From Candidatus Dojkabacteria bacterium (lineage in GTDB: Bacteria; Patescibacteriota; Dojkabacteria; SC72; JAHDCA01), in the NCBI GenBank assembly GCA_030583845.1, contig CP129478.1, positions 279,175-343,174 of the forward strand: a DNA stretch of 64,000 nt, read 5' to 3'. How positions within the stretch are numbered: position 1 is the first letter of the stretch; every line of letters starts with the position of its first letter. Below the pieces are notes generated by a model that was not told where the DNA came from, ran no database searches, and was given only the letters and a program-made list of their open reading frames with translations. The position numbers were made by a program, and so were the translations under genes. Shown piece after piece: positions 18,996-54,982 of this stretch.

Positions 18996-19054
18996 TTCTT
19001 TTAATTATTTAGCTTAATTTAGGAAATGCCAGACCGGATCGGGCATTTATTTGG

Positions 19055-20263
19055 CTATTTAACAGCCTTTAATATATCTTTTGCAGCTTTCTCGCCGATA
19101 CCCTTGATATCCATGAGCTGCTCAGCAGAGAGCTTCTTGATCTTTGCTGCGGTGCTGTAACCTGCTGCTTCGAGGGCTTTAACTGTCCTTGCTGGCAGTC
19201 CGAGGTCACCAAGTGCCGAAGCTTTCTCTGTCTCCTTCTTCACAGCTGCCTTCTTTGGCTTTGCTGCTTTTGGTGATACCTTTGGCTTCTCTGCCTTAGC
19301 TACCTCTGCCTTTGGAGCTTCTTTCTTCACTACTCTCACAACTGAAGCCTTTGTTACTTCTGGAACTGCTTCACCTGTTCGCATTCGTTTCAATTTCTCG
19401 CGATCCTGCTCCTCCATTGCAGCTTTTCTCTCCGTCTCCCGCTCGAACTCTGTAGACAATGCATGCAATTTTGCCTCATGCGACTGCCTGAGTGAGATTA
19501 CTGCTTCCGATCGCTTACCACCCTTTAGAGCCTTACCAAAGAGCTCAATAAATAGTCGGATGCTCTTGATCGAGTCATCGTTGGCTGGGATCGGGTAAGT
19601 TACGAGCTCTGGATCACAGTTGGTGTCAATCAATGCGACTACAGGGATCTTCATGTTTGCTGCCTCACGGATGGTGTTCATCTCGACCTTGCTGTCGATT
19701 ACAACAACCAATTCTGGGAGACGGTCCATAAACTTGATACCACTGTAAAGCTTGTTCAATCTTTCAACATCACGTGCGAGCATTAGCTGCTCTTTCTTTA
19801 CTAGACCCTGTGCGCCGGCTGCAAGCTGCTCTTCCATAGATACAAGCTTGTCGACACTCTTCTTAATCATTGAGAAATTTGTGAAAAGACCACCTGGCCA
19901 TCTGTTATTGATGTAAAACGCACCATTCTCTATCGCGATATTCTGCACCAAAGTAGCTGCCTGACCCTTTGTACCTACAAAGAGCACTGAGCCCTTTTCT
20001 ACTGCATCTTGAATCTTCTCGAGTGCGGTATCAAGCATCTGCATCGTCTTTACGAGGTCGATGATATGCACTCCGTTTCGCGAAGTATAGATATACTGCT
20101 GCATCTTTGGATGCCAGCGGCTGGTCCTATGACCAAAATGAACACCCGCATTCAGAAATTCGTCGAGTGATGGAATTTGCACCTTAGCTTTCTTAGGTGC
20201 TGCAGCCTCTGTCTGGACTGCCTGCGCTCCTTTAACTGGAGCTGCTTTCTTAGCTTCTGCCAT
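19055..20263 (-). CDS. rpsB: 30S ribosomal protein S2 with about 150-aa Lys/Ala-rich C-terminal extension ending in an HhH-like module
   Basis: uS2 core VHFGHRTSRWHPKMQQYIY…. The extension ends in …LGLPARTVKALEAAGYSTAAKIKKLSAEQLMDIKGIGEKAAKDILKAVK, a helix-hairpin-helix resembling the RNAP alpha C-terminal domain. Confidence 0.9.
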   Translation of the reverse strand: MAEAKKAAPVKGAQAVQTEAAAPKKAKVQIPSLDEFLNAGVHFGHRTSRWHPKMQQYIYTSRNGVHIIDLVKTMQMLDTALEKIQDAVEKGSVLFVGTKGQAATLVQNIAIENGAFYINNRWPGGLFTNFSMIKKSVDKLVSMEEQLAAGAQGLVKKEQLMLARDVERLNKLYSGIKFMDRLPELVVVIDSKVEMNTIREAANMKIPVVALIDTNCDPELVTYPIPANDDSIKSIRLFIELFGKALKGGKRSEAVISLRQSHEAKLHALSTEFERETERKAAMEEQDREKLKRMRTGEAVPEVTKASVVRVVKKEAPKAEVAKAEKPKVSPKAAKPKKAAVKKETEKASALGDLGLPARTVKALEAAGYSTAAKIKKLSAEQLMDIKGIGEKAAKDILKAVK

Positions 20264-20466
20264 AAAATATTTCCTTACTATAATTTATCTACCTCTCCGA
20301 GCTTTCTAGCTTCGGGTTGAGGCCACCTACTCCGAAGGGCAATGCCCAGGAAACTTTCGAAGTATGCGAGATTTACGTCGGGATGATAACAAATTTATTA
20401 TCTCGGCGCAAGCCGAGGGTGCTGCTATACAGAAGGATATTACTTAGGCACGTGGGAAGATTAAAA

Positions 20467-20790
20467 CTAATCTAGCACCGCTAGCGTCTTCATTTCAATA
20501 ACATCAACTGCTGGAGTTTCATATGGATGTGAATTCTTTATTGCCTCTAGTACAGCACCCAATCTATCCTCCGGACACACCATTTCGATTTTATTCTCAG
20601 GCTCTCTGCTCATCTTTCCGACTTCACCGATCGCTGGCTTTGCACCAGCCTTACTTAGCCAATTTCCATGTCCAGAAGTAATGAATGCGCAATGAGAATA
20701 GTTGCCAATAACTCCAGCTCCAGCTTCTGCCATTGCTTGAATTACTTTATCAGTGCTATCTTGTGGAACGAATACGTATATCTTATACAT
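20467..20790 (-). CDS. CutA-like / PII-superfamily small protein (tentative)
   Basis: 107 aa. C-terminal SHPYETPAVDVIEM resembles the CutA HHPYxxPE motif. Assignment is weak. Confidence 0.4.
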   Translation of the reverse strand: MYKIYVFVPQDSTDKVIQAMAEAGAGVIGNYSHCAFITSGHGNWLSKAGAKPAIGEVGKMSREPENKIEMVCPEDRLGAVLEAIKNSHPYETPAVDVIEMKTLAVLD

Positions 20791-20813
20791 CCGAATATTT
20801 ACTTACTTATACT

Positions 20814-21920
20814 TTACGCTCGAATCTTCTCCCAAGGGAAATCTTCTCTCCCGAAATGCCCGTATGCCGCTGTAGCTAGATAGATTGGGTTTCTCAGCTC
20901 AAGAAAGTCAATCACCTCAGAGACCGAAAGATTGCCCACTAAACTCTTTACAAAATCTACAATCACATTATTAGGTGACTTGCTTGTCCCAAAAGTATCA
21001 AAATCACTCATAAGAGGATAATGCCCTCCAAAAGTAAACGCAAGCCTAGTCTCAACCTTGTCGGCCAATCCATGAGCTACAATATTCTTGGCTATGTACC
21101 TTGCAAAATAAGCCATCGAACGATCAACTTTGGTTGGATCTTTGCCGCTAAAAGCGCCACCTCCAACTCGTGCAAACGAGCCGTAAGAATCAACAATTAT
21201 CTTGCGCCCCGTTACACCTGTGTCTGAAGCTGGACCACCGATATACCATGGACCACCATTCACGTAAACATTCTCTCTAGAGATTAATGCAAACCCGAAT
21301 TTATCACTCATCGGGACAATAATATTTTCATAGAAGTCCTCTTTTACCTGGTCGGGAGTTACATTTTCTTTGTGCGGCGCTGCTAAAACAATGTTTAAGA
21401 TTTTGTATGGTTTTCCATCTTTATACTGAATAGTCACTTGTGTTTTTCCATCAGGTCTCAAATATGGGATCTTTTTGGATTCCCTGAGCCTGTCAATTTC
21501 ATGTGCAAAGGTGTGTGATAATACAATGGGGGTTGGCATGAATTCTGCTGTTTCATTAGTCGCATATCCATACATAATACCCTGATCCCCTGCACCAGCC
21601 TTATCTACTACATCCGAAATTGTCTGAGATTGTTTATGGATGAATACTGATATTGGGGATCGATCCGAATACCCCAGTTTATCGTCAGTGTACCCAAGCT
21701 TACGGATTACTCCTTTAGCAACATTCTCATAATCAATTTCACCTGCAAGTGTGACCTCACCTGCAAGAATTGTCTTATCTCTAGTGACGAGTGTCTCAAC
21801 TGCAACCCGAGCGTACTTGTCTTGCGATAAGGCGGAATCAACTATCGCATCGCTTATCTGATCACAGATCTTATCTGGATGCCCTGCACAAACCGATTCC
21901 GAAGTGAATGTCTGATTCAT
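20814..21920 (-). CDS. metK: S-adenosylmethionine synthetase
   Basis: FTSESVCAGHPDKICDQISD and GGGAFSGKDPTKVDRS motifs. ATG at 21920 is preferred over the TTG-extended ORF to 21938. Confidence 0.9.
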   Translation of the reverse strand: MNQTFTSESVCAGHPDKICDQISDAIVDSALSQDKYARVAVETLVTRDKTILAGEVTLAGEIDYENVAKGVIRKLGYTDDKLGYSDRSPISVFIHKQSQTISDVVDKAGAGDQGIMYGYATNETAEFMPTPIVLSHTFAHEIDRLRESKKIPYLRPDGKTQVTIQYKDGKPYKILNIVLAAPHKENVTPDQVKEDFYENIIVPMSDKFGFALISRENVYVNGGPWYIGGPASDTGVTGRKIIVDSYGSFARVGGGAFSGKDPTKVDRSMAYFARYIAKNIVAHGLADKVETRLAFTFGGHYPLMSDFDTFGTSKSPNNVIVDFVKSLVGNLSVSEVIDFLELRNPIYLATAAYGHFGREDFPWEKIRA

Positions 21921-22139
21921 TACAATTTGGTAATTCAAATTATTAGGGTGTTATAGCTAGATTCGAACTAGGTACAAGCCCGACTACATACAAAATCACA
22001 CTCTTTAAATATGGGTGCGATGATACTATAAGTCCACCTTGGTGTGAAGTGTTAGCCGTTAAATATTACATAGTCACGTAACACATCAATCCGAAGTTGC
22101 TCATAGATCTATACGCAGAATCAGACTGATGTGTCTGGC

Positions 22140-22862
22140 TTATTTGCTTGCAATGCCCAACTCTGTGAGTAGCTCAGGATAATCTTTTATCGTGAAATCT
22201 GCCTGTACGCCTGCATCCTTCCCCTCTACATTACCGTCGGTTGCTGGGTCGTAAATTCCTGCTCTGATCCCGATTAGCTGCGCACCACGGATATCGTTCT
22301 TATAGTTGTTCCCAATCATCACAGCCTCATTTGGCTCAATCTTGAGTCGCGAGAGAGCCAGGGTAAATATTGCACTAAACGGCTTCTCAAAGATCACCTC
22401 TTCCGAGGCGATTATCTGGTCGACATAATGCAATAGCCCCGCAGCCTTCACCTTACGGATGCGCAGGCTCAGGCTACCATCTGATACGATTGCCACTTTC
22501 ATCCCGGTATCACGGATCCGCATAAGTACATACTCTACATTTGGGAATAGCTCAATATTGTTCATGAAAAATTCCCAGTACATATCCTCAACATCTGGAA
22601 GCAGCGAGAGATCATACTTCCCAACCATCTCATCTAGCGCCATCCTGAATACAAGTATCCTGCTGTGTCGCGTGTGCACCGTCGGGAAATTGCGCTGAAC
22701 GATCAGATGCTTCTCTGCAACCAGGCTATAGAATTCATCTGTATCAAGTGAATACTTCCTCGCCAAGAAATTGGATGCAAACCTGAGTGCACGGTCATAT
22801 ATCTTGCCAGATTTGGTCAATGTATCGTCCAGGTCAAAGAGGACGGCTTTATATTTCAGCAT
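22140..22862 (-). CDS. HAD-superfamily hydrolase
   Basis: Motif I VLFDLDDTL, motif III K…, motif IV GNNYKNDIRGA. Confidence 0.7.
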   Translation of the reverse strand: MLKYKAVLFDLDDTLTKSGKIYDRALRFASNFLARKYSLDTDEFYSLVAEKHLIVQRNFPTVHTRHSRILVFRMALDEMVGKYDLSLLPDVEDMYWEFFMNNIELFPNVEYVLMRIRDTGMKVAIVSDGSLSLRIRKVKAAGLLHYVDQIIASEEVIFEKPFSAIFTLALSRLKIEPNEAVMIGNNYKNDIRGAQLIGIRAGIYDPATDGNVEGKDAGVQADFTIKDYPELLTELGIASK

Positions 22863-22914
22863 GGGCAGCCACAAAACTATCTAAATCAGAATCATTGTAG
22901 CACCTCACTCGGAT

Positions 22915-23565
22915 CTATACGAGATCTGAACCCTTCTGTACTATCCTGCGCCATCCATTCTTGGCAACTATTAAATGGTCGAGCAACACAAAGCCGAGCT
23001 CTTTTGCTACCCTACCCACCCTATCGGTAAGCTCAATATCTTGCCTGCTTGGATCAAGTACTCCTGACGGATGGTTATGTGCCATCACTATATAGAGTGC
23101 GTTCTTCTCTAGCGCCGGCAATAATATATCGCGCGGCTGAATAAAAAGTGAATCTATATTCCCAACCCCGATCACCTCCTTATGGAGCAGCTCAAATCTG
23201 GCGTTCAAGTAGATCGCCTTCAGATATTCGCGCTTTTTATATTTAATATCTTCAAATTGAGCGACTGATTCTTTCGTCGATGAGATGCGAGGCTTCTCGC
23301 TGCTATATAGCTGGTAAAGACGCCTACCAAGCTCTATCCCAGCTAGAACCTGCATTGATTTCACACGGCCAAGCCCGCGGACTTGCGAAAGAGTTTCAAG
23401 ATCTACGGGTCGATCTGGGGAGCCTTTCCTTAGCTCTGTGACTAGATTATTGGCTATATCACGATAGTGCACACCACGACTACCGCTAGAGATCACGATT
23501 GCAGCAAGCTCTCTATCGGAGAGAGACTCTAATCCGCGGGATTCATATTTTTCACGAGGCTTCAT
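22915..23565 (-). CDS. radC: RadC-like JAB/MPN domain protein
   Basis: HhH N-terminal region and JAMM motif HNHPSG…D. Confidence 0.85.
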   Translation of the reverse strand: MKPREKYESRGLESLSDRELAAIVISSGSRGVHYRDIANNLVTELRKGSPDRPVDLETLSQVRGLGRVKSMQVLAGIELGRRLYQLYSSEKPRISSTKESVAQFEDIKYKKREYLKAIYLNARFELLHKEVIGVGNIDSLFIQPRDILLPALEKNALYIVMAHNHPSGVLDPSRQDIELTDRVGRVAKELGFVLLDHLIVAKNGWRRIVQKGSDLV

Positions 23566-23639
23566 TGCTTAATTATAATGAAGGAATGTGAAAAATATCT
23601 TAAACAGTTACAGGCTAAGGGTCTTCGGTTTGCTAACGA

Positions 23640-25763
23640 CTACTCATCATCACCATCTTCATCTTCCGACTTCTTCTCTGCTTTGACCTTCTTAATAAAT
23701 TTGCACTCCGGATAGCCGCTACAACCGATGAAGTTCTTGCCCCACTTGCCTCGGCGTTCGACTAGATGATGTCCAGATTCAGGACACTTCTCGTGTAGAA
23801 GCATCGGGACGATCCCCTTGCACTCTGGATAGCGCTCGCACGCCCAAAATTGCCCATATTTACCGTTCTTGAGCAGCATCTTTGCACCGCATTCTGGGCA
23901 TTTTTCTGGCTTTTTATACTTCTTAAGGTCGATGCTCTCCTCACCGCCGTCGATGCTCTTCATCCCTTTGCACTCTGGGAATTTCGAGCAGCTTAGGAAT
24001 TTTCCATACCGACCTAGCCTAATTACCATCTTTGAACCGCACTTGTCACACTTCTCGTCTGATTTGCCTAGAATGACGACGTCGTTTTTCTCAACGCTCT
24101 TGTCAGCAGCTTTGATATCCTTTACGAGAGGCTTGTACTCTTTATCGAGGAAAGGTGCATACTCGACCTTGCCTTCTGATATTAGGTCAAGCTTCTCCTC
24201 TACCTCGGCTGTATACTCGTAGTCAACTAGGCTCGCGAAGTTCTTCATCAAAAATTCATTTACTACCCTGCCGACGTCGAGCGGGTGAAGGAAACGCGCC
24301 TTCTTCTCTACATAGCCACGACTCTGAACTGTGCTGATGATGGTTGCATAGGTTGAAGGTCGACCAATTCCGTAATGCTCGAGTGCTTTGACCAAGGATG
24401 CGTCTGTGTATCTTGGCTTCGGCTTGGTAAAGTGCTGCTCAGCATCTAGCTTCTTGTTCTCCAATTTCTCTCCTTTCTGGACCTCGCTGATCTGCTGTAG
24501 CTGCTCCTCATCCTTCTCACTTGAGGCCTTCCACACCTTGCGGAAGCCATCAAAGAGCACCTTCTCACCACCCATTCTGAATTCATACTTTGCCTTTGAC
24601 TTGCCAACCACCTCACAGGTCACGGTTAGCACCTCGGTCTGCTGGTTCTTCATCTGACATGCCAATGTGCGGTCATAGATCAATTTGTACAGCTTCGCCT
24701 CCGCTGGGCCTAGATCTGCTTTCACCTGTATATCTGAAGTGTTGAAATCGGTTGGACGGATCGCCTCGTGCGCCTCTTGGGCATTTCGGCTTCGGCTCTT
24801 GTAGTAGTTTGGCTGCTCTGGGAGATATTTCTCGCCGTACTGCTCTACGATCTTGTCTCGTGCTGCATCTATCGCCTGCTGGGCGAGATTAAATGAGTCA
24901 GTTCTCATATAGGTGATGTAACCGGCCTGGTATAACGCCTGAGCCAATCCCATTGTGCGCTTGGCAGTAAATCCAAAAAGATTGTTGGCTGCCTGCTGTA
25001 GAAGCGAGGTCGAGAATGGCGGATATGGCTTCTTCGACTTGGCAGTTGTCTGCACGTCGATAACTTCTAAATCGTTTTTGCCGATATCTTTCTTGATTTT
25101 CTCTACGTCATCCTTGCTGCCAGGTATATTTTTCTTCCCATCTTTCTTGGTGAATTTCGCCTTTAGCTCGTTCTTCTTGTGCTGAACGATTGCATACAGA
25201 TCCCAATACTCATCAGGCACAAATGCCTCGATCTCCTTCTCTCTTTCAACAATTAGCCTGAGAGCTACTGATTGCACACGACCTGCGGATAGTCCGTACC
25301 AGATCTTCTTCCACACAAGCTCAGACACTTTGTATCCGACCAACCTGTCTAGAGCACGACGCGCCAGCTGTGCCTCGACGAGGTTGTCGTCGATCTTCCG
25401 CGGTGCCAATATTGCTTCGTTTACTGCCCCTTTGGTAATTTCGTAGAAAACAACACGCTGCGGCTTCTTTAATTTCAATGCTTTCGCTACATGCCATGCG
25501 ATAGCCTCCCCCTCACGATCCGGGTCCATTGCCAGAAACACTTTCTTCCCTTTAGCTGCTGTACCGAGCTTCTTGATGATGTCGGCTTTGCCTTTAATCG
25601 TGGTAAATTCAGGCTCATACTTGTTGTCAACGTCGATGCCCAGCTTGCTTTTTGGTAGGTCAATTATATGACCAACCGTGGCCATCACCTTGTAATCTTT
25701 TCCTAGATACTTGCTTATTGTCTTCGCCTTAGACGGAGACTCTACGATCACTAAGTTCTTCAT
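23640..25763 (-). CDS. topA: DNA topoisomerase I
   Basis: Toprim N-terminus LVIVESPSKAKTI, active-site Tyr region, three C-terminal C4 zinc ribbons. Confidence 0.9.
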   Translation of the reverse strand: MKNLVIVESPSKAKTISKYLGKDYKVMATVGHIIDLPKSKLGIDVDNKYEPEFTTIKGKADIIKKLGTAAKGKKVFLAMDPDREGEAIAWHVAKALKLKKPQRVVFYEITKGAVNEAILAPRKIDDNLVEAQLARRALDRLVGYKVSELVWKKIWYGLSAGRVQSVALRLIVEREKEIEAFVPDEYWDLYAIVQHKKNELKAKFTKKDGKKNIPGSKDDVEKIKKDIGKNDLEVIDVQTTAKSKKPYPPFSTSLLQQAANNLFGFTAKRTMGLAQALYQAGYITYMRTDSFNLAQQAIDAARDKIVEQYGEKYLPEQPNYYKSRSRNAQEAHEAIRPTDFNTSDIQVKADLGPAEAKLYKLIYDRTLACQMKNQQTEVLTVTCEVVGKSKAKYEFRMGGEKVLFDGFRKVWKASSEKDEEQLQQISEVQKGEKLENKKLDAEQHFTKPKPRYTDASLVKALEHYGIGRPSTYATIISTVQSRGYVEKKARFLHPLDVGRVVNEFLMKNFASLVDYEYTAEVEEKLDLISEGKVEYAPFLDKEYKPLVKDIKAADKSVEKNDVVILGKSDEKCDKCGSKMVIRLGRYGKFLSCSKFPECKGMKSIDGGEESIDLKKYKKPEKCPECGAKMLLKNGKYGQFWACERYPECKGIVPMLLHEKCPESGHHLVERRGKWGKNFIGCSGYPECKFIKKVKAEKKSEDEDGDDE

Positions 25764-25779
25764 ACTTCCCCCACTTCAG

Positions 25780-26955
25780 TCATCTGATTAGATAGTAATT
25801 ACCGTTGTCATAACGCCCCAAAATACCTGTCATTTCATTCCTTGTCAACATAGCGGCCGTCTCGCCGATGCTTTGCATTGTTAATTTTTGGACATCCAAA
25901 AGGCTGAACCCATGAGGATAATTTTGGAGCAGCTTAGCCGCTATCTGCGCAAGCTCTGGTGGGTAGTTTCGGCCATTTTCTGCTTGCACTTCGATGCCAA
26001 GGGCATCTATTAAGTCTTCTAACGAAGCAGCATGTGTAGCACCCTCACTAATTAGCTTGTTGCAACCCTCTGACTGCTTTGAAAATACCGAGCCCGGGAA
26101 AGCGATCACCTCCCGCCCATACTCGGCTGCCAATCTTGCCGTAATCATTGACCCACCATGGATTGCCGACTCCACCACTATTGTGTGGCTCGATAATCCT
26201 GCCATTATTCGGTTGCGCATCGGAAACATCCCCTTAACTATTGGCCTACCTGGCGGGAATTCCGCTACAATAAGCCCCTTTGTCCCTAGATCGCCGTAAA
26301 TCCTCCTCGACGAGGCAGGGTAGCCCTGCCCTAGCCCACCCGCCACCACACCTACCGAAGCGATCCCAACCTCGAGGCATATACGATGCACAGTGGCATC
26401 TACACCATATGCCAATCCACTCACAATTGCATGTGTATTTTTGATCTTCTCGAACAGCTTTGCCAGTACCTCGTGGCATATACGTCTGCCATATTCGCTC
26501 ATCCTCCGTGTGCCAACCACAGTGATCAGCTTCTTATTTAGTATCCCTGGCTCACCTTCGTAGAAAAGGAAGGCTGGGCAATCTGTGAGCTCTTTGAGCT
26601 GAGGCGGGTACTCTTTCTCCCAGAAAGCTATGCTTGGCTGGCCGGGCTCTGTAGTGGGATATTTAGATGAATGGTATCTAGGGTGGGAGGTTGAGATCCT
26701 CGCAGTGGGATATTTAGCCAAATGGTAAGTGTTCGAGATCCTCGCATACTCAAGCTTAGCAGCCTGGCTGCCATAACCTGGCTTGAGTAGCTTTGAGATC
26801 AGGTAGCTCTTAAAATCTTTGTGATCGGGCATACTCCGATTGTAGCGCCCAATCATTAAATATTTCTGAAATTCTCCGTCAATGTGTACTGGCAGATGCA
26901 CCGGCCGAGTGCGATCACCGGGAAAGGCTATTTGAATAGGACAAACCCAATTCAT
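25780..26955 (-). CDS. dprA: DNA processing protein DprA/Smf (start uncertain)
   Basis: Rossmann-like DprA core …FLFYEGEP…VVGTRRMSEYG…IVSGLAYGVDA…IAVLGGGL-like, and conserved dprA-topA order. The ORF extends to 27036, but its first 27 codons run through the 25-bp palindrome and are unlikely to be real. Candidate starts are at 26955, 26850 or 26826. Confidence 0.75.
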   Translation of the reverse strand: MNWVCPIQIAFPGDRTRPVHLPVHIDGEFQKYLMIGRYNRSMPDHKDFKSYLISKLLKPGYGSQAAKLEYARISNTYHLAKYPTARISTSHPRYHSSKYPTTEPGQPSIAFWEKEYPPQLKELTDCPAFLFYEGEPGILNKKLITVVGTRRMSEYGRRICHEVLAKLFEKIKNTHAIVSGLAYGVDATVHRICLEVGIASVGVVAGGLGQGYPASSRRIYGDLGTKGLIVAEFPPGRPIVKGMFPMRNRIMAGLSSHTIVVESAIHGGSMITARLAAEYGREVIAFPGSVFSKQSEGCNKLISEGATHAASLEDLIDALGIEVQAENGRNYPPELAQIAAKLLQNYPHGFSLLDVQKLTMQSIGETAAMLTRNEMTGILGRYDNGNYYLIR

Positions 26956-26988
26956 GACTGCTCTCGTGAAACCAACTCCGCCTTCCCC

Positions 26989-27013
26989 AAGTCGCACTTT
27001 GCAAGTGCGACTT
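26989..27013. repeat. 25-bp palindrome AAGTCGCACTTTGCAAGTGCGACTT, copy 1, overlapping the PBP2 stop
   Basis: Seen directly: 11-bp arms and a 3-nt centre, identical at 30387-30411 and 53921-53945. Confidence 0.9.
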
Positions 27014-28964
27014 AGTAGCCCTCGCTTACCATCCAATCGATATACTCGCGCGCCATCTGCGCAGCATAGAAGCTCTCCCCACCATCCTCGAGTAGTATGA
27101 CAAAGGCATATTTCGGATCATCATACGGGAAGAAGCCAGTTACCCACCCGTGAGCATGCTCATATTGCCCCTTCGAGTTAATTGCACCGAACTCGGCTGT
27201 ACCAGTCTTGGCGGCAACCGCAACTTTCGCATCAGTCAAAGCCGAGATGCTCTTCTTTGGACCAGCTACTGCCTGGCGCATCGCATAGCGGGTTGTTTCT
27301 AAAGCCTCATCGGATATAAAATCGGCTCGAATTGGTTTGAACTCCAGCATCTCCTCACTTCCATCAGCATCCTTGAATTTCATACCAACATGCGGAGTAG
27401 TCAAAGTACCTCCATTGGCAATTGCCGCGATCCAGTTTGACATCTGAAGAGGGGTAACCAAACCAATACCCTGCCCTATGACCGTGTTGCAGCTGTCTCC
27501 CTCCGGATACCAGATCTCATCGAGCCATGTGACGCCTGGAGTATTGGCAAGCTCCTTCTTATGAGCAGGAGATGGTAATCGTCCTGGCTGCTCGCCATAC
27601 AGATCAACCCCTGTATAATCACCAATTCCGAATTTCTCATAATATGGCACCAGCTCATTGATACTCCAGTCTCGGATCGTCTCGCAGAAGAAAATGTTAG
27701 ACGACCGAGCAATAGCGTCTATGATATTAAGCGAACCGTATGAGTTGTTGCGGTACTCCTGAAATGGCGCGCCGTTAGAGAAAGTATAGCCAGTGCGGCT
27801 TACATAGATTGTATCCAGGTCGATCACACCAGCATCAAGTGCGGCTGCCGCAGCGATAGTCTTAAATGTCGATCCGGGCGGAAACTGCGCACCGATCGGC
27901 CTATCCAGCAGTGGCAAGCGCTTATCATTAAGCAATTTATCATAATCCGCTTGAGAGATTCCGCCAATAAACTGATTGTTGTCGTAGGTCGGGAATGTTG
28001 AGAGGACAAGCAGCTCACCTGTCTTGATATCTTGGATGATCCCCGCACCACCAGTAGCGTTATATTTCTCAACTCCGGCATCAATGACCTCCACCATCTT
28101 TTTCTGCGCCTTACTGTCGATCGTGAGATACAGGTTCTTGCCACTGTTAACCGGCTGTAGCTCATGGCTTGTGTCAGTCACTACATTGCCGTAGCCGTCG
28201 ATTTCAAGCGCAATAAGGCCTCGCTCGCCTATCAACTGCTCGTCATATACTTTTTCCACACCTAGCCTTCCAACAATATCGTTATAGCCATTTCGTGCTA
28301 CAAATTCATCGTAATCAAGATAGTCAAGCTCGTCGAGATCTTCAGCAGTTACAATACTTGTGTAGCCAAGAATATGTGTGAACTCATGACCGCCTGGGTA
28401 ATTTCGCTTGCTCCCTTCTCTTACAGCGAGACCTTCGACGGTGTCACTTAGAGATTTCAGCTTAATTGTCGTCTCATTATCTACATCCTCAGAGATCAAT
28501 ACCTCACTTAGTAGCTCCACAGTCATATCTTCCTCCCTCTTATCGAGAGATTTCTGCATCTGATCTACTAGCCAAGCAGCTAGGCTTTCCGTGTCCTGAT
28601 CCTCGATTTGGGTGCGCCACTGGTCGCCTATCACGGCAACAATCTGCTCTGCCGCTTCGCTCACCTTCTCCTTATCTACCCCCTCCTTTGTGTAGTAATC
28701 ATCAAGCACTAGGTAGAGGTTATTTGCTGCAACATTTTCGGCCAAAATCTCACCGTTTCGATCTAAGATCACTCCACGGTTTGGATATTTATAGCTTAGC
28801 ACTACACTATTTGCTGCAGAGGTTTGTGAATACTCCCCACCCTCTACTATCTGAAGCCCTACTAGCGCGACTGCTAGCCAGACAAAAAGCACTATCATAA
28901 TTATGAATAGATAGGTGAAGTTCCAAGAGGAGGTTTTGATTTTTTCTTCTTCGTGCCAGACCAA
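27012..28964 (-). CDS. mrdA: Penicillin-binding protein 2 (peptidoglycan D,D-transpeptidase)
   Basis: N-terminal TM, SxxK (STFKT), SSN and KTGT (AKTGTAE) motifs. Lies downstream of mreBCD. Confidence 0.85.
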   Translation of the reverse strand: MVWHEEEKIKTSSWNFTYLFIIMIVLFVWLAVALVGLQIVEGGEYSQTSAANSVVLSYKYPNRGVILDRNGEILAENVAANNLYLVLDDYYTKEGVDKEKVSEAAEQIVAVIGDQWRTQIEDQDTESLAAWLVDQMQKSLDKREEDMTVELLSEVLISEDVDNETTIKLKSLSDTVEGLAVREGSKRNYPGGHEFTHILGYTSIVTAEDLDELDYLDYDEFVARNGYNDIVGRLGVEKVYDEQLIGERGLIALEIDGYGNVVTDTSHELQPVNSGKNLYLTIDSKAQKKMVEVIDAGVEKYNATGGAGIIQDIKTGELLVLSTFPTYDNNQFIGGISQADYDKLLNDKRLPLLDRPIGAQFPPGSTFKTIAAAAALDAGVIDLDTIYVSRTGYTFSNGAPFQEYRNNSYGSLNIIDAIARSSNIFFCETIRDWSINELVPYYEKFGIGDYTGVDLYGEQPGRLPSPAHKKELANTPGVTWLDEIWYPEGDSCNTVIGQGIGLVTPLQMSNWIAAIANGGTLTTPHVGMKFKDADGSEEMLEFKPIRADFISDEALETTRYAMRQAVAGPKKSISALTDAKVAVAAKTGTAEFGAINSKGQYEHAHGWVTGFFPYDDPKYAFVILLEDGGESFYAAQMAREYIDWMVSEGY

Positions 28965-28975: not shown

Positions 28976-29464
28976 TTATAGTTTAATCGTAGAATGACTA
29001 CTTTCCGATATCTTAGAAACAACAGTCTTAAGAGCGAAATAAATTGCCACCTCAATCAAGGAGAACTTAACCGCCGAAAATAGCTCTCTCCAACTCAAGC
29101 CTATCTGGCCCTGCTCCAGCACACCAGCAGCCATAAAGAAGAGGAGGTGAAATCCAATGAATAGAAAAATTAATGTAATTATTTCTACTGGGATATTGCT
29201 CATAGGGAGAAAGCGACACACCAATTTGAAGAGTAAGCAAGCAATAATAAGTAACAAAAATGTAAACCCGATCGGGTATGAGAAATATATGTCATTTAAC
29301 AAGGTTGCAGGCAGGATTAAGCCTAAAAACGCAACCAGCCTCATCCTGCTATAGGCGAAAACAGCCACTACCAGTAGCAAACTAAAGACACTTAATGTGT
29401 TCAATATTGCCTGGATAAAGACAAGCAGCAGGGAGCCTATTATTACAGCAATGATCAATCCCAT
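28976..29464 (-). CDS. mreD: Rod shape-determining protein MreD (by position and hydrophobicity)
   Basis: 162-aa polytopic membrane protein between mreC and PBP2. Its start overlaps the mreC stop. Confidence 0.55.
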   Translation of the reverse strand: MGLIIAVIIGSLLLVFIQAILNTLSVFSLLLVVAVFAYSRMRLVAFLGLILPATLLNDIYFSYPIGFTFLLLIIACLLFKLVCRFLPMSNIPVEIITLIFLFIGFHLLFFMAAGVLEQGQIGLSWRELFSAVKFSLIEVAIYFALKTVVSKISESSHSTIKL

Positions 29465-30324
29465 TATTCAATAACCACAAATAAGTAATTTATATTGTCA
29501 TACACAAAAGCTGGTCTAACTTTGGCACGCTTCACCGGTGCAGCCGGATCATCGATCACCTCACTTACGCTTCCGATGTAGAGCAGCTCCTGAATCTCGG
29601 GGTCATTCACTACAACAGCATATCCAGCCTGCACCGTATCGTTCCTGGATATATTGTCGACCTTGATAGCTGAATTTTCGCCTAGGGCGAGACCATTTGC
29701 TAAATCGTCGCGGTTGCTAAACTCCTCTTTTAGTTGCTCAATTCCCTTGTCAAGATCAGGATTATCGATTAGCAACACCTCGAGGGTGCTTGTCTCGTTA
29801 TTTGGCAAGATCACCTTTGAGGTAAGCTCGCTCACGGCGCCTATGTAGCCAATATATATGCTCCCAATCCGTACAATATCGCCCTCTTCTACTCCATCCT
29901 TCTTGCCGGCATCAATTATCATCGAGTCATCTACTCCTATATCTGAAGCCAATACATTGGCCTCCAACAACTTATCCTCTCGCTTGCCTAAATCTATCTC
30001 CTTGCGCAATGCAGCATTCTCTTCTAATAGTAGCTGTAGCTTACGATTTTCAGCCTCTAACTCTGCCGATGTTATCTGCAAGACTGCATTTTCAGAGCGG
30101 ATGTATGGGATTGAGAAGAATGCTTCAACTGAGTCGTCAATTGCCTTGCCTACAGCCACACCACCCTTCATCAAAGGCGACCCGGCATATGCAATCGGCT
30201 TTCTCAGGCTCTCTGCGGGCAATATATAGTTGGCCGAAAGCAGCAGCACCGCCACCGCCAGGGCAATAAACTCTTTGGGAACTTTTGAGCTTTTCTCATT
30301 GAGAGAGAGGTCAGTAACTTTCAT
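29464..30324 (-). CDS. mreC: Rod shape-determining protein MreC
   Basis: N-terminal TM, coiled coil LQITSAELEAENRKLQLLLEENAALRKEI, beta-rich C-terminal domain. Confidence 0.8.
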   Translation of the reverse strand: MKVTDLSLNEKSSKVPKEFIALAVAVLLLSANYILPAESLRKPIAYAGSPLMKGGVAVGKAIDDSVEAFFSIPYIRSENAVLQITSAELEAENRKLQLLLEENAALRKEIDLGKREDKLLEANVLASDIGVDDSMIIDAGKKDGVEEGDIVRIGSIYIGYIGAVSELTSKVILPNNETSTLEVLLIDNPDLDKGIEQLKEEFSNRDDLANGLALGENSAIKVDNISRNDTVQAGYAVVVNDPEIQELLYIGSVSEVIDDPAAPVKRAKVRPAFVYDNINYLFVVIE

Positions 30325-30383
30325 CGGTTGATTGTAGCAATTTTCCCGATTTCTGTCTTAAGAGGGTCTTATGGCGAGCGGGA

Positions 30384-30414
30384 GAAACGCCACGCCAAGT
30401 CGCACTTTGCAAGT
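30384..30414. repeat. 25-bp palindrome copy 2 (extended to 14-bp arms: CGCCAAGTCGCACTT TGC AAGTGCGACTTGGCG) between mreB stop and mreC start
   Basis: Seen directly. Confidence 0.9.
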
Positions 30415-30477
30415 GCGACTTGGCGAAGTCCGACTTCGTGAAGGCGGAGTTTGTGAAACGGTTTGTGCAACTTGCAA

Positions 30478-31527
30478 TTAGGCCAGCTCCTCCCAGGACT
30501 TCTGTACTCTCTCGAGCAGCTCGATGTGGTCGAGCATAGCTGAGGTTCCGCGCGCTACAGCAGAGAGTGGCTCGTCTACGATATTTATCGGAAGCTTTAG
30601 CTCCTGCTCCCAAAGCTTATCGAGCCCTCGAATCAGGGCGCCACCACCTGCAATATATGCACCTGAGGTCACCAAGTCTGAGAGTAGCTCCGGAGGCGTC
30701 TCTTCGATGGCGTCCTTCACAGCATCGGTGATCTTGTCCAGCGAATTCATGATAGCCTCACGACATTCGATGCTTGAAAATTCAACTGATTTTGGGAGGC
30801 CAGTCAGCAGGTTGCGACCCTGGATGATCACCTTCTTTTCTTCTTCCTGCGGCACAGCTGAGCCGATCGCTATCTTCACATCTTCGGCGGTTCTCTCCCC
30901 TATCAGCAGGTTATATTTCTGACGCACATAATTGATGATATCCTGATCCATTTCATCACCAGCTACTCTCAAGGTCTTGTCTACGACAATATCGCCAAGC
31001 GAGAGCACTGCAATGTCAGAGGTTCCACCACCAATATCTATAATCATGCTACCCGACGCCTGCTCGATTGGCAGCTCGGCACCGATCGCGGCGGCCATTG
31101 CCTCTTCTACGATGAATACTTGGCGCGCTCCTGCGCTCTTAGCAGCGTCCATGACGGCTTGGCGCTCTACTTCGGTCACCGATGAGGGTACGCCCACAAT
31201 CACACGTGGACGAGGGATTTTGAAGCTTCCAGAGCTGTACCGATGCACCTTACTGATAAAGTAATGAATCATCGCCTGGGTCATATCGAAGTCTGAGATC
31301 ACACCATCTTGCAGGGGCTTAGCGGCAACTACCCGGGCTGGAGTCCTACCGATCATCTGGCGAGCCTCAGCTCCTACGGCAAGCACTCGCTTCGTCTTCT
31401 TATCTATCGCAACCACTGAAGGTTCTGAGATTACGATACCCTTCCCTCTGAGGTACACCAAAGTATTCGCGGTACCGAGATCAATTCCGATATCGTATGT
31501 GACTAGATTCCAAAGTTTGTCGAACAT
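30478..31527 (-). CDS. mreB: Rod shape-determining protein MreB
   Basis: Actin-fold motifs IGIDLGTANTLVY, DIGGGTSD. Confidence 0.9.
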   Translation of the reverse strand: MFDKLWNLVTYDIGIDLGTANTLVYLRGKGIVISEPSVVAIDKKTKRVLAVGAEARQMIGRTPARVVAAKPLQDGVISDFDMTQAMIHYFISKVHRYSSGSFKIPRPRVIVGVPSSVTEVERQAVMDAAKSAGARQVFIVEEAMAAAIGAELPIEQASGSMIIDIGGGTSDIAVLSLGDIVVDKTLRVAGDEMDQDIINYVRQKYNLLIGERTAEDVKIAIGSAVPQEEEKKVIIQGRNLLTGLPKSVEFSSIECREAIMNSLDKITDAVKDAIEETPPELLSDLVTSGAYIAGGGALIRGLDKLWEQELKLPINIVDEPLSAVARGTSAMLDHIELLERVQKSWEELA

Positions 31528-31597
31528 TTCTTCAATATGATAATTACACTTTCAGGGTGATTATACTCTACAGGACTGTAACTGTGGAACAAAATAG

Positions 31598-31721
31598 CTC
31601 CCGCTAACTTATAGTATGTACTCAACCCTTAGTACTGCACTGTTTTCTCAAGATTCATTAAATCCGGGCTGGGCAATTGGTCACAGTGGACAGTGATGCA
31701 CGAACTATAAGTTAGCGGGAG
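31598..31721. repeat. REP-like element: arms CTCCCGCTAACTTATAGT / ACTATAAGTTAGCGGGAG flanking 88 bp
   Basis: Seen directly. Lies between the mreB start and rpmB stop. Confidence 0.8.
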
Positions 31722-31727
31722 GGATAA

Positions 31728-33826: not shown

Positions 33827-34029
33827 TGTTTTAGGAATCTCTCGAACTCAGTCCTCGCTGCGCTGCGGAAGAATACTCCAAATGGCCGCAAAAGCATGCT
33901 TATGGTGAGGCGAGTTCTCAAACTCCCTAAAACATGGCATGATATGAATCACAACCATGAGGTGATGTTAAATAAAGCTTCGCACGCAGCGTAGCGAGTA
34001 TTAGAAGCTTTATTTAACATCACCGAGAA

Positions 34030-34895: not shown

Positions 34896-37800
34896 TTAAG
34901 CGGTAATTTGTGTTGGAGAAACCGATTGCGGACTATCAACTCTCCTCATCACTCCACTCTCAGTACTCCCGGTCCAATTATCCTCGGGAGGCTGCAGCTT
35001 GAAATTACCCGTTATCAGATCCAATTTCTTATTAATTGTGTACTTTACCTTCCCTTTGACCACTTTATGCTCACCGTTGAATTCCAATCTGTAAATCCCG
35101 GCGAATGAGACAATCCTATACCTTCCCTGCTCGTCAGTAATCACCTTCTGAACAGTTTTATCCGTCCCCTCTTCGATTAAAGTAATCTCCACACCGGCCA
35201 ACCTATTCCCTTTAACAGACCTTACCACACCATATGTATAGCCACTCTTAAGCATGCTCTGAATGATTAAAAGGCTTACAGGTATTAGATATAGCAGGAA
35301 GAATGTGAAGTTCAACCACGATGGAGAGGTAATAAGTACAAGGCCAGAGAGCACCATGCCTAGAACTAATAGTATCCTCAAAACAATAAATAGTGCATTC
35401 ACAAAACCGCTCTGTGCGACATTTACTAATACTGTGCTCCACCCGCTCTCAGCTCTATCTAGCGGCACTGCTCTATCTACCGAGTAATCCTTTTTGTGAC
35501 TAAATACTCCACCAAGGTAAAGGCTTTGATAGATCCCATCTGTAGAGGTCTTGATCGTCCTTGCAGGGAATCGGTAGCCAGTCTTAACTGCATCGATCCT
35601 ATATCTACCATTATCAAGGTATAGGTTATACACACCGTTATATCTGGTCACATCTGTATCAACCAACCTGCCAAAATCGTCGTAAACACGTACTATCACA
35701 TTATTTAGTGGGGCTTTGTCTTGAGCATCGTAGACGATACCGAACGACTCACGTTTGCGCGATTTCAAGAAGTTCAGCAGTGCGATCCAGAACCGCAAGG
35801 CCATGCCAGGGATCTCTGGTATGAAGAGTAATATGTAGCCCGCAGAAGCGGCTGTAGCCACTCCAGAAGTTACCAGATCGTACTCTCCCTCCTCCCACTC
35901 CTCCACCACCCGTCCAGTGGTCTCAACGATAGCTTCCCCAGCCCTACCTATTATCGACTGTGGTTGCGAGGTAGTCTGCCTTCCGCTACCATTATTTGCT
36001 GGTGCGGCTGGCTCCTCTCCGTCGTCTGGTTCTGCGCCTGGTACAGGCTCAGGTTCTGGTTCGGGTTCAGGATCCTGTTCTGGTTCAGGCGGTAAAGGTT
36101 CACTATTAGATATCAGCACCGTCTCTGAATAAACCTCCGAAAGGTTACCAACGGCGTCTCTAAGCCTCACATTTATTGTTACCGAGCCAGTTGCCGTAGT
36201 CCTGTATTCAAGATTTGCTTCGTACTGCTCCCACTCAGTTTCAATAAATTCTTCGCCTTCCGATATCATAATCTCGGCAACGCCAGAACCAGTATCGATC
36301 GCAGGTATCAAAATTACTATATCTCGAATATTACTACTGCCCGAATTGTCTGTAATAAATAGTTCGCCCACAGGAGGGATAGTGTCAACTCCGAAGGCAA
36401 CCTCTCCTTCGTTTGCAGTACTATAAACGACTGGGTAAAGGGTTGGATCATAGCCACCAACGCGCCAGTAGTAAGTAGAATCACCTAGAACTTGCCCTTC
36501 GTTACCTACAGCATATGTGCCGCCTGAAGGAGCCTGACCAACGGTGAAGGTATAACTACCTTGTGCTAGTGGTGCCGATGTGAAATCAACGACAGGGGTT
36601 GAGAAATCTTCGCTGTCATCAATCTGAATTCGATACTGGACTGTGTCCGTACTGTCCTCATCAGATATAGCAAATGCAAATACAGGGGCTGTATTAACGC
36701 TAAACTCTCCATCTATTACGGCACCCTCACCAAGATCGGTCGTCACCGGAATTCCGAAGTTCCAACCAACATTATTACCTAGGTTAGACCCAGTACCAAG
36801 TAGCTGAATAGCAGTCGGACTATTATTTACGCTATCGCTAACATCCACATACTGTATATTCCTTGAACCTTGAGGATCAATGTACCAAGGCTGACCTGGA
36901 GTTACAGAGACCAAATCAATATGATTGTTTTCTGTCCCCGCAATCGTAGTCATACCTTCTACTGTTATCACACTTCCTTCTAACACCTGGAAAGTAGCGA
37001 TGTTTGGCAATACCTCAATATTATTAAACTGATAGTTTCCTGTAAGGATCGTTGCACCACCGTCGAAGATCACTGTACCGTTATTATGATTAAAAATACC
37101 ACTATTGGTTAAGTCACCTGTGACAATAAGCTCATCAGATGGTGCGGTTAATGTACCGTTATAGTTAATGACCAATTGCGAAACCGTTGAAGTAGCAGGT
37201 AGCATCAGGTGACTCGAGACTTCAACCATAACATCACTATTAAAGCTCGTTGACCCACTTAGGTCAGTAACAGTTGTAGTTGAAACAGTAAGGTTGTCAA
37301 TGTTAAGAGAGTCAAATCCTGAGAAAAAGCCACCAGGATCCTGGGATAACTCAGCTAGGTAAAGTGTATCTCCTCCCTTCGTGAGCGTTCCCGTGCCAGT
37401 CAAACTGGCACCGCCCAGGTCATACCTGTACAGATTTATTGCTCCATTTGGAAGTACTGGATCGTTACCGACTGGAAGGCTACAGTTATTTGCGATTCCT
37501 AGAATAGAGTCTAGGCCGAATGTCACATGGTTAAACACGAAGTTTTCACAGTCTATTGGCTCATATGCGGTATTATCAAAGTGGATTGTTCCATTGTTAT
37601 GATCAAATGTTGTCGTGCCAGTCACCTGCATCTGGCCACGTAATGTAGTTGTGCCGGCGGAAGCGATCAGGTTTCCGCCAGAAAAGGTGAAGTCGCCAAA
37701 AGCGGAGTTCTCAGCAAGTGTGAGTGTGCCCGAACTAAAGGTCAGAGTTCCTGCAATGTCCAAACCGCTGTATCCAGATAGGTTTAATGTTGGACCTGAG

Positions 37801-52709: not shown

Positions 52710-53870
52710 TTATAGCCCTGCTACCTTGAAAGCATCATCAAACATCTTCTTGCTGTAAACAAGCTTTGGCTTAGGGATGAGCCCTTCATCCACCCACTTT
52801 ATCTGGCTAAATCCGATCTTGCCAGCATATAGCTTCTCATAGATTGTAGGATCCTTCTCTACTTTATTCCTGACCCTTCTAAAGCCTTTAAAGTAGTTAT
52901 AGTCCCGCGAGTATATACCCGGCATATTTGTATCCCCTAGCCCACGCTTGACTCGATATACGATGTGGAATGCCTCGATCCTAGGAGCAAAAGCCTGTGT
53001 AGCATTATAAAGCTCACGGAACGACATCTGCTCACCAACCCGGATAGCCCACACCTTGACTGCTCGGCCTACCAGATCTTTCTTCTTCAATACGCCAACC
53101 ATCTCCTCATTATATGTAGCTAATCCCTCCTCTGCCTCAAGATATGAAGGGAGGTTTGAATTTGCCAAGGCAGGCACTTTAGTCTGCTCTCCATTATAGG
53201 CCCTGGCTATATGCGTGAATTCATGCACAATTGTCTTCCGTAGATCTACGGCACTCTTCTCAATCTCTGGATCCATCAATATCTCCTTCTTCTTGATACC
53301 AACCTTCACCCCGTTCTTGTCGATGTTCTTTGACTTGCCTGCTTTCCAATCACTCAGTCCAAGCTCCTCAAGGACGATTGCCATAGTTTCTGCAATCTCT
53401 TCGTACCTCAGCTTTCTCTCAACTTTCTTACTCCCCTCATCCATCAGTTTGTAATTTTTCACCTTGCCCCGTAGCACTCTTGTGGCATTCCTAAAAAGGA
53501 TATCGCCAGGCATTCCAAATCTCTCCTGCGAGAGTCTTGTGAATCTAAAATTCTGGCCGACTGAATGTAGAAGCTCATTGAGCTGGTGCTTCGAATCGAT
53601 CAGTTCTAGGTAGAATTCTGAAATTCGAGGATCTACATCGGTGACAACTTTTACACTACTCAGCTTTGCTAAGATGTCGGCATTTTTATTTTTTACAACT
53701 GTATAAGTGAAAAGCGGGTTGTAGCTGCTGGACTCAAAGAATCTCTTGCGCTCTTCTTTTAGGTTGGTTGGGGTGAACACTAGGGATGTAGGGGCGCGGA
53801 ATTCTTGCAGCAGCTCTGTTAGTTCCTTGAGCTTAATTTCGCTCTTTCCTTTTTTGGCGAATATCGTCAT
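52710..53870 (-). CDS. DUF1704 / QEGLA-motif zincin-like protein
   Basis: HExxH IVHEFTHI and EEGLATY (QEGLA-like) motifs. The ORF's first 23 codons (to 53939) run through the 25-bp palindrome, so the ATG at 53870 is preferred. Confidence 0.5.
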   Translation of the reverse strand: MTIFAKKGKSEIKLKELTELLQEFRAPTSLVFTPTNLKEERKRFFESSSYNPLFTYTVVKNKNADILAKLSSVKVVTDVDPRISEFYLELIDSKHQLNELLHSVGQNFRFTRLSQERFGMPGDILFRNATRVLRGKVKNYKLMDEGSKKVERKLRYEEIAETMAIVLEELGLSDWKAGKSKNIDKNGVKVGIKKKEILMDPEIEKSAVDLRKTIVHEFTHIARAYNGEQTKVPALANSNLPSYLEAEEGLATYNEEMVGVLKKKDLVGRAVKVWAIRVGEQMSFRELYNATQAFAPRIEAFHIVYRVKRGLGDTNMPGIYSRDYNYFKGFRRVRNKVEKDPTIYEKLYAGKIGFSQIKWVDEGLIPKPKLVYSKKMFDDAFKVAGL

Positions 53871-53920: not shown

Positions 53921-53945
53921 TAACCAAGGGAAGTCGCACTTTGCA
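53921..53945. repeat. 25-bp palindrome copy 3 between the mreB-paralogue stop and the DUF1704 gene start
   Basis: Seen directly. Confidence 0.9.
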
Positions 53946-53971
53946 AGTGCGACTTGGTTCGCGCTTCGCGC

Positions 53972-54982
53972 TTATTCTTTCGCGATGCTAGTCACGCCTG
54001 CTGCGAGCAGCTCCAAGGCTGCACCAGTACCCTTTGCCACACAGTACATCGGCTCATCAGCAACGTATGCAGGCACGCCGGTCGCCTTCGTGAATAGCTT
54101 GTCCAGATTCCGAAGCATTGCTGTACCCCCACTCATCGCCATGCCACGATCAATAATATCGGCCGATAGTTCAGGCGGTGTCTTTTCTAACACAGACTTG
54201 ATAGCCTGAATAATTTGCGCCAGCGGCACTCGCAAAGCCTCTGCGACCTCATTCGAATTTATCTCCATCGAGCGAGGCATTCCGCCTGCTGCATCACGAC
54301 CACGAATCTCCATCGATTGTGGATTCTCCACCTTCATCGCTGAGCCAATCTTAATCTTGATCATCTCGGCTGTTTGCTCACCAACCAGCAACCCATGTCG
54401 CTTACGCAGGTATGACACAATAGCATCATTAAGCGCATCTCCTGCGACACGCAAGGATGAGTACTCTACAATTCCACGGAGCGAGATCACGGCAATTTCA
54501 GAGGTACCACCACCCATATTTACGATCATGCTTCCGGTCGAGGTCTCAATTGGCAAGCCGGCGCCAATCGCTGCGAGCAACGGCTCGGGCACCAGATAGA
54601 TCTTACGGGCTCCAGCAGCCGTAGCCGCCTTGAGCACAGCACGCTTCTCTACAGAGGTGATTCCGGCAGGCACGCTAATCATCACATCCGGTTTGAAAAA
54701 TCGAGAAGGACCTCCAAGTGCTTTGTTGAAGAAATACTTAAGCAGAGCTTCGGTCACGCGTGAGTCTGCAATAACACCGCTTCGCATTGGCCTGCGAGCT
54801 ACGATGTCATCGGGAGTCTTGCCGATCATCTCCTTTGCCTCCATCCCTACGGCTAGGACCGACATATTGTTTACATCAAGGGCGACAACTGTGGGCTCTG
54901 TTAGCACCACACCCTTGCCCTCGAGAAATACTATTGAATTGGCTGTTCCTAGGTCGATGCCTAGCTTCTTTCCTCCTATCAT
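53972..54982 (-). CDS. MreB/Mbl-like actin homologue (second copy)
   Basis: LGIDLGTANSIVF…, NMGGGTSE… actin-fold motifs. About 50% identical by eye to the mreB at 30478..31527. Confidence 0.8.
   Translation of the reverse strand: MIGGKKLGIDLGTANSIVFLEGKGVVLTEPTVVALDVNNMSVLAVGMEAKEMIGKTPDDIVARRPMRSGVIADSRVTEALLKYFFNKALGGPSRFFKPDVMISVPAGITSVEKRAVLKAATAAGARKIYLVPEPLLAAIGAGLPIETSTGSMIVNMGGGTSEIAVISLRGIVEYSSLRVAGDALNDAIVSYLRKRHGLLVGEQTAEMIKIKIGSAMKVENPQSMEIRGRDAAGGMPRSMEINSNEVAEALRVPLAQIIQAIKSVLEKTPPELSADIIDRGMAMSGGTAMLRNLDKLFTKATGVPAYVADEPMYCVAKGTGAALELLAAGVTSIAKE

Follow-up and report, generated by a model that had tools for sequence, protein, structure and literature searches.

A perfect palindrome repeated behind three cell-shape genes of a Candidatus Dojkabacteria bacterium resembles REP elements

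In a 64,000 nt stretch of a Candidatus Dojkabacteria genome (hereafter the window), the 25 nt palindrome AAGTCGCACTTTGCAAGTGCGACTT occurs in three exact copies, which lie behind mrdA, mreB and an mreB paralogue (mreB2). We consider it probable that this sequence is a young, species-specific extragenic palindrome of the REP-like kind, acting as an RNA hairpin that punctuates the 3′ ends of the genes upstream of it, and we place it, as a new member, among the extragenic palindromic repeats in their loose sense. A further copy elsewhere in the genome, mobility of the repeat and a function at the RNA level are parts of this reading that we infer from the evidence described below.

The palindrome is composed of 11 nt arms and a 3 nt loop, AAGTCGCACTT-TGC-AAGTGCGACTT, and all exact copies are found on the plus strand. 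By chance none would be expected, as judged from dinucleotide-preserving shuffles, and shuffled sequence contained no match to the 25-mer even when up to three mismatches were allowed. With the same tolerance of three mismatches, no degenerate copies of the 25-mer exist elsewhere in the window. Across the three copies the consensus widens to a 13-3-13 arrangement, CCAAGTCGCACTT TGC AAGTGCGACTTGG. The asymmetric loop is identical in every copy and always reads in the same direction with respect to transcription. A preliminary description of this DNA had reported an identical palindrome in triplicate with 11-3-11 geometry, and both the exact count and the shuffles bear this out, as does the stable hairpin formed by every copy. 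Its coordinates hold for the first copy (26989-27013), while those given for the second and third (30387-30411 and 53921-53945) were 10 nt too low, and the arms of copy 2, reported as 14 bp, actually form a 15-3-15 palindrome (30393-30425). The copies, their accessory sequences and the adjoining genes, which were assigned with Pfam, are as follows.

26989..27013, minus strand: copy 1, 11-3-11 palindrome, overlapping by 2 nt the TAA stop codon of mrdA (27012-27014)
26965..27013, minus strand: 49 nt unit, palindrome plus tail GGGGAAGGCGGAGTTGGTTTCACG, the candidate exact repeat elsewhere in the genome
26974-26985, plus strand: 12 nt tail of copy 1, AACTCCGCCTTC, common to copies 1 and 2
30393..30425, minus strand: copy 2, perfect 15-3-15 palindrome with its core at 30397-30421, 52 nt after the mreB stop codon and 68 nt before the mreC start codon
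30424-30438, plus strand: 15 nt mini-palindrome of copy 2, CGAAGTCCGACTTCG, with outer arms identical to the outermost 5 bp of the main palindrome
30440-30451, plus strand: tail of copy 2, GAAGGCGGAGTT, the copy 1 tail on the opposite strand
53927..53959, minus strand: copy 3, core at 53931-53955, outer AACC/GGTT pairing across a bulge, beginning 16 nt after the mreB2 stop codon
27012..28964, minus strand: mrdA (PBP2), upstream of copy 1
25780..26955, minus strand: dprA, downstream of copy 1
30478..31527, minus strand: mreB, upstream of copy 2
29464..30324, minus strand: mreC, downstream of copy 2
53972..54982, minus strand: mreB2, upstream of copy 3
52710..53870, minus strand: MATCAP/DUF1704 gene, downstream of copy 3

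All genes that neighbour the palindromes are encoded on the minus strand (topA, dprA, mrdA, mreD, mreC and mreB at one locus, mreB2 and the MATCAP gene at the other). Each of the three copies occupies a spacer between co-directional genes, 0-52 nt past a stop codon. The Pfam assignments agree with the earlier statement that the copies follow PBP2 and both MreB paralogues. The artificial N-terminal extensions previously noted for two open reading frames also proved to be real (ORFs 25780-27036 and 52710-53939). In public gene calls the MATCAP protein is 409 amino acids long owing to a spurious N-terminal extension that reads through the palindrome, whereas gene calls from the sister species back a start that yields 386 amino acids. 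The six-frame dprA frame can likewise be extended through the palindrome. The longest plausible dprA reading frame encodes 391 amino acids, and the sister-species DprA (333 amino acids) aligns with it from Met34 (26856), which may be the true start; the first 33 codons and the 418 amino acid six-frame version are probably non-coding.

When transcribed from the minus strand, the minimal hairpins have predicted folding energies of −19.5 (copy 1), −27.4 (copy 2) and −14.9 kcal/mol (copy 3), with folding z-scores of −6 to −7. The flanking sequences differ among the copies, but they lengthen the stem in each of the three. A U·G and a C-G pair bring copy 1 to 13 pairs in the minus-strand RNA, CGCC/GGCG extends copy 2, and AACC/GGUU extends copy 3 across a bulge. 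The stems are followed by GGGGAAGG, UGGCGUUUCUCCC and CCCUUGGUU, none of which contains a U-tract, in keeping with what the preliminary description had said on this point. A canonical intrinsic terminator is rejected on this ground. The hairpins resemble such terminators in being stable stem-loops right after a stop codon, and differ from them in this missing U-tract. A terminator scan of the 22-36 kb region did not pick up the palindrome sites, and consensus terminators there are fewer than in shuffled sequence (7 versus 12.1). Among the convergent gene pairs of the window whose spacer is long enough to fold, none of five carries a strong hairpin, which leaves a general role in termination undemonstrated. 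Searches against Rfam matched only tRNAs at the gathering threshold, and when relaxed to E values of up to 5 they returned chance-level matches only, away from the palindrome sites. A known RNA family was consequently rejected as the identity of the element.

The properties of the palindrome compare well with those of REP elements, which lie mostly downstream of open reading frames between unidirectional genes (Di Nocera et al. 2013, PMC3733652). Like REPs, it is a repeated intergenic palindrome of 25-33 nt located downstream of open reading frames between genes of the same direction, it is predicted to give a stable transcribed hairpin that lacks a U-tract, it is species-specific, and it coexists with other families in the same genome. 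A REP unit is expected to be a stem-loop of 20-40 bp, and the copies range from 11-3-11 to 15-3-15 with energies of −14.9 to −27.4 kcal/mol. The expected extragenic position, downstream of open reading frames between unidirectional or convergent genes, is seen for all three. The effect to be expected of such an element is stabilization of the upstream mRNA combined with partial termination, and E. coli REP325 has been described as both terminator and stabilizer (bioRxiv 10.64898/2026.03.23.713779). We infer a comparable role as stabilizer and/or partial terminator for the Dojkabacteria hairpins.

Several features set the palindrome apart from classic REPs and weaken this reading. The GTAG/CGTC tag of the REP super-families (PMC3733652) is absent from the conserved 29 nt unit and from the shared tail, and GTAG occurs only in the flank of copy 1, inside mrdA codons; for this reason we file the element as working like a REP rather than as a REP sensu stricto. 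All of its copies are perfect and alike in sequence, and decayed versions are missing from the window, whereas classic REPs are imperfect. Three copies were seen and at least one more is predicted, and no transposase, Y1_Tnp or RAYT domain was detected among the approximately 40 window open reading frames scanned. The constant loop orientation relative to transcription and the location of all three copies found in 69 kb beside shape genes also detract from a REP-like origin. A literature search on REPs and CPR bacteria together returned a compost-mobilome preprint as its sole match.

Copies 1 and 2 share their 12 nt tail on opposite strands, which implies that the repeat unit is longer than the palindrome and is present in both orientations. 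In copy 2, the 15 nt mini-palindrome sits between the tail and the main palindrome. Additional evidence for a dispersed repeat comes from Logan contigs, which are built from a de Bruijn graph with k=31. In four independent short-read assemblies, the contig on the mrdA side ends at 26984 and the contig on the dprA side starts at 26994, whereas the same assemblies run uninterrupted through copies 2 and 3. The k-mers missing at the break are exactly those internal to 27013..26965, and this k=31 signature points to an exact repeat of 49 nt (AAGTCGCACTTGCAAAGTGCGACTTGGGGAAGGCGGAGTTGGTTTCACG) that has other flanks elsewhere. Loss of coverage or fold-back caused by the hairpin was rejected as the source of the breaks, since the upstream contig holds the whole hairpin. 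At least one further identical 49 nt copy thus probably resides outside the 69 kb examined. This 69 kb includes a right-hand extension of approximately 5 kb (Logan contig L088) in which no additional palindrome copy was found, leaving the count at three. The left extension by Logan contigs ends in repeats of another type (family B).

Wider searches gave few candidates. The exact 25-mer had no match in the genome contig collection, and a pattern with a relaxed loop had none in viral contigs. The relaxed pattern matched two metagenome contigs, with other loops (TTT and TGG) and in unrelated contexts; these were judged coincidental hairpins and rejected as family members. Six-frame translation of the 49 nt unit against a protein database yielded two word-sharing candidates, none of which scored. 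This outcome hints that the family could be small, which again sits less comfortably with a REP-like reading. Sequence differences among samples were observed as well. A co-occurring strain (contig L092, DRR779146) is 97.2% identical to positions 13608-26994 of the window, with 42 gaps, and other samples are 99.6-100% identical. This difference indicates that within-species variation exists. The organism occurs in samples SRR24881069, DRR779145, DRR779146 and DRR859400.

The palindrome shares this DNA with others of its kind: at least two further extragenic palindrome families are present in the window and adjoin unrelated genes. The more abundant of these (family A) is made of inverted CCGCTAACYTATAG arms, which either form tight hairpins of 17-24 bp or flank 100-210 nt in a layout like that of REPINs or MITEs; overall the arms are spaced by 3-210 nt. 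Family A fills seven other spacers of the window (after tsf, rpmB, nusG, rplJ, rplL and others), and its units often begin 0-15 nt past a stop codon. The third family is a 20-3-20 palindrome, CCTCCGTCCGACCACTAACC, within a 72 nt direct repeat. The two direct repeats are 99% identical, and the 3′ end of tRNA-Ser (233-323, minus strand) lies inside the second. The members of both families are listed here.

42193-42235: family A, tight hairpin, nusG/rplK spacer
44206-44249: family A, tight hairpin, rplJ/rplL spacer
44700-44750: family A, tight hairpin, after rplL
48470-48529: family A, tight hairpin
3761-3975: family A, long-range pair
18077-18264: family A, long-range pair, tsf/frr spacer
31588-31723: family A, long-range pair, rpmB/mreB spacer
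4240-4278, 5254-5292, 5917-5955, 6014-6142 and 9799-9964 of contig L096: family A
16546-16593 and 18167-18315 of contig L103: family A
14-85 and 179-250: 72 nt direct repeats with the 20-3-20 palindrome, beside tRNA-Ser

Family A is conserved between the sister species in sequence and partly in position, while other sites are occupied in only one of the two. When contigs L096 and L099 are compared, the arms are kept and the internal sequence is strongly divergent. Logan contigs also break at the 72 nt direct repeats (14-85 and 179-250). A perfect 21 nt inverted repeat with a 22 nt spacer (33961-34024) lies between tRNA-Thr and tRNA-Tyr; shortly past it, at 34066 within tRNA-Tyr, Logan contig L002 begins.

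REPINs and small MITEs (Bertels and Rainey 2011, PMC3116915) are a related class of short non-coding palindromic repeats that differ in presence or absence between close relatives. This variability is shared by the elements described here, and family A, with its two inverted CCGCTAACYTATAG arms around 3-210 nt, also shares the layout. The palindrome behind the shape genes is instead a single tight hairpin with a 3 nt loop, not two REPs around a spacer, and its half-sites are confined to the three palindromes. Target-site duplications and a transposase were not identified for it.

MreB relatives place the source of this DNA in Candidatus Dojkabacteria (WS6, CPR), and proteins identical to its MreC and MreB2 belong to a Dojkabacteria MAG at NCBI with a contig of 1,036,382 bp. 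By MreB, the closest species representatives are 85% and 82% identical, and the gene order mreB-mreC-mreD-mrdA-(dprA)-topA is kept in approximately 40 Dojkabacteria loci. The palindrome was present in none of these approximately 40 syntenic mreB-mreC-mreD-mrdA loci, nor was any perfect hairpin of at least 9 bp found after mreB or mrdA in them. Contigs of closer relatives were obtained via MreC (68-76% identity) and MreB2 (95% identity), and among them those of a sister species (MreC 75%, MreB2 95% identical) contain neither the palindrome, with up to six substitutions allowed, nor a half-site. In this sister species the mrdA/dprA spacer is 75 nt long with no notable structure, and the mreB2/MATCAP spacer of 188 nt holds only a small 6 bp GC hairpin. 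Its mreB/mreC spacer, however, carries two inverted CCGCTAACCTATAG arms of family A around approximately 140 nt, starting from the mreB stop codon. Any role of the mreB/mreC slot should therefore be independent of the palindrome sequence, because a different repeat family is found there in the sister species.

These comparisons leave the previously suggested shared control of the shape machinery unsupported, given that absence from relatives had been named beforehand as evidence against it and the palindrome is missing from the approximately 40 loci and from the sister-species contigs alike. A regulon motif should be conserved in orthologous regulatory regions, and this one is found neither at the three sister-species junctions nor at the approximately 40 further loci. 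We also rejected the idea that the palindromes behind mreB and mreB2 were inherited through duplication of the gene, as the paralogues are approximately 45% identical and relatives are without the palindrome.

The region between copy 2 and mreC contains a promoter-like site.

30331..30359, minus strand: mreC promoter-like site, AAGACA and a TG-extended TACAAT separated by 17 nt, with its end 7 nt ahead of the ATG

From the −10 box, TG(C/T)TA(C/G)AAT, through the ATG this site is invariant in the window, L096, L099 (sister species) and L102 (third relative). The −35-like AAGACA is common to L096 and L099 and is not found in L102, and the remainder of the mreB/mreC spacer is not conserved and cannot be aligned among the relatives. 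On this evidence mreC probably has its own promoter, which is possibly leaderless. Since the mreC ATG is preceded at 7 nt by this conserved extended −10 box, mreB can be a transcription unit of its own, and the strong hairpin of copy 2 upstream of this box would then mark the end of the mreB unit. In Legionella pneumophila, mreB is expressed as a monocistronic mRNA, with a terminator before mreC (PMC4630621). The hairpin behind mreB would similarly permit a monocistronic mreB mRNA separate from mreCD in this Dojkabacteria species. Unlike the Legionella terminator, it is repeated after mrdA and mreB2 and has no U-tract. Shine-Dalgarno sequences are not seen upstream of genes in this DNA, and TATAAT-like boxes end approximately 7 nt before several ATGs, for example at 54983-55007 (mreB2) and 30325-30359 (mreC). 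This pattern suggests that initiation in this organism is leaderless or does not depend on SD sequences.

The REP-like reading would combine these observations in the following manner. A short repeat with a 13-3-13 consensus, accompanied in two copies by the adjacent 12 nt tail, may have expanded recently in one species, whose genome of approximately 1 Mb belongs to the Candidatus Dojkabacteria (CPR/Patescibacteria) and whose spacers also harbour two or more further families of palindromic repeats. Copies would have landed, or been retained, in spacers located at gene 3′ ends. Transcription of the minus strand would then close the mrdA, mreB or mreB2 message with a very stable hairpin, which might block 3′ exonucleases, partly stop read-through, or both. 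In this way an abundant upstream gene could be separated from the next unit, as occurs with the stabilizing and attenuating REPs of E. coli. The most likely effect would be generic rather than specific to cell shape, namely 3′-end punctuation that dispenses with a U-tract.

The strongest competitor, to which we assign a minor but real share of the probability, is that the palindrome is purely selfish or neutral, be it small mobile DNA or the outcome of gene conversion; it would leave expression unaffected and reside in spacers that tolerate insertion. Species-specific and identical copies suggest recent spread, the tail occurs in both orientations, family A has been gained and lost between the species, and the sister species manages without a comparable structure at two of the three junctions. 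Nevertheless, a hairpin of −15 to −27 kcal/mol in the transcript, which in one case overlaps a stop codon, would hardly be without effect. The extension of pairing into the flanks of all three copies and the presence of a strong palindrome in the mreB/mreC slot of both species also speak for some function.

Less probable still is a dedicated cis-element that co-ordinates mrdA, mreB and mreB2, either as an RNA hairpin with a specific RNA-binding protein or RNase or as a DNA operator, and that would make up a shape regulon peculiar to this species, which a spreading small repeat may have wired together. Its chief attraction is that every copy adjoins a shape gene. With five shape genes among approximately 58 gene 3′ ends, this has a nominal p of ~3e-4, computed post hoc, or ~4e-3 when limited to the 27-kb neighbourhood, before correction for the post-hoc choice of category, and the association remains a nominally unlikely, post-hoc coincidence. 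The identical sequence and asymmetric loop in one orientation relative to transcription, the lack of decayed copies in the window and the slight hint from the peptide search of a small family point the same way. These features are outweighed by the absence of the palindrome from every relative examined, including the three sister-species junctions, and by the occupation of the mreB/mreC slot in that species by another repeat family. The two orientations of the tail, the prediction of at least one more copy elsewhere and the location of other palindrome families beside unrelated genes are further arguments against it. A related and similarly doubtful idea is that the small repeat was co-opted as a sequence-specific 3′-UTR element or operator tying together mreB, its paralogue, PBP2 and perhaps a fourth envelope gene beside the predicted further copy, as a newborn regulon, or that a few families of identical hairpins, among them family A with its conservation in sequence and position between species, serve this CPR lineage as factor-recognized, U-tract-independent terminators.

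We regard it as quite improbable that the palindrome is an operator through which a dimeric transcription factor controls the genes that follow it (dprA, mreC and MATCAP) rather than those before it. The perfect dyads do precede the next start codons by 46-132, 85 and 73 nt, with the promoter-like box situated between copy 2 and mreC. However, arms of 11-15 bp with flank-specific stem extensions are atypical of operators, the distance to promoter or start codon differs among the copies, and the dyad is not conserved in relatives whereas the mreC promoter box is. Moreover, no functional connection is evident among the genes downstream. Finally, inverted pairs of DNA uptake sequences, brought to mind by the adjacent dprA and by the resemblance of the half-site AAGTGCGAC to the Haemophilus USS (AAGTGCGGT), are effectively refuted: exact half-sites occur solely within the three palindromes and never inside genes, and of the 27 matches with up to two mismatches (16 expected) 12 are simply the six exact palindrome arms and their reverse-strand matches, so that the half-site is not over-represented outside the palindromes.

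If the REP-like reading is true, an ordinary class of element is found in an unusual host, a CPR genome of approximately 1 Mb that keeps several palindromic families and swaps them at the same junction between sister species. The mreB/mreC junction thereby offers a natural experiment on structure-based versus sequence-based 3′-end elements. There are also practical consequences, in that palindromic repeats of this kind mislead gene callers (as for the MATCAP and dprA reading frames) and break short-read assemblies. The palindrome would gain greater importance if its family proved to be confined to envelope and shape genes.

Some additional features of the window were recorded. Beside mreB2, the segment 44827-53870 encodes a 7TM_transglut protein, an ATPgrasp_ST protein with a Zn_protease-like C-terminus, three to four RimK/ATP-grasp proteins and the MATCAP/DUF1704 carboxypeptidase homologue. 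This cluster, whose arrangement is conserved in the sister species (contig L103), may be a system for ligation and removal of peptide tails beside an actin homologue. Ribosomal protein S2 (19055-20263, 402 amino acids; 393 in the sister copy) has a C-terminal domain resembling the RNA polymerase alpha-CTD/HhH fold. An open reading frame of 1929 amino acids (34896-40685), whose only Pfam match is a response-regulator receiver domain, has the tRNA/dcd region on one side and the secE-nusG region on the other, and is absent between dcd and nusG in L096. Strongly structured long intergenic regions upstream of metK (21939-22139), upstream of rpsB (20264-20466) and between a TrpRS-like gene and a PEGA gene (57026-57413) matched nothing in Rfam at gathering score; they may represent small RNAs or leaders that lack annotation. 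The arginyl-tRNA synthetase gene (62298-64000) runs past the end of the window and continues in L088 (4117-6744), and the full gene encodes 875 amino acids with an N-terminal B3_4 domain.
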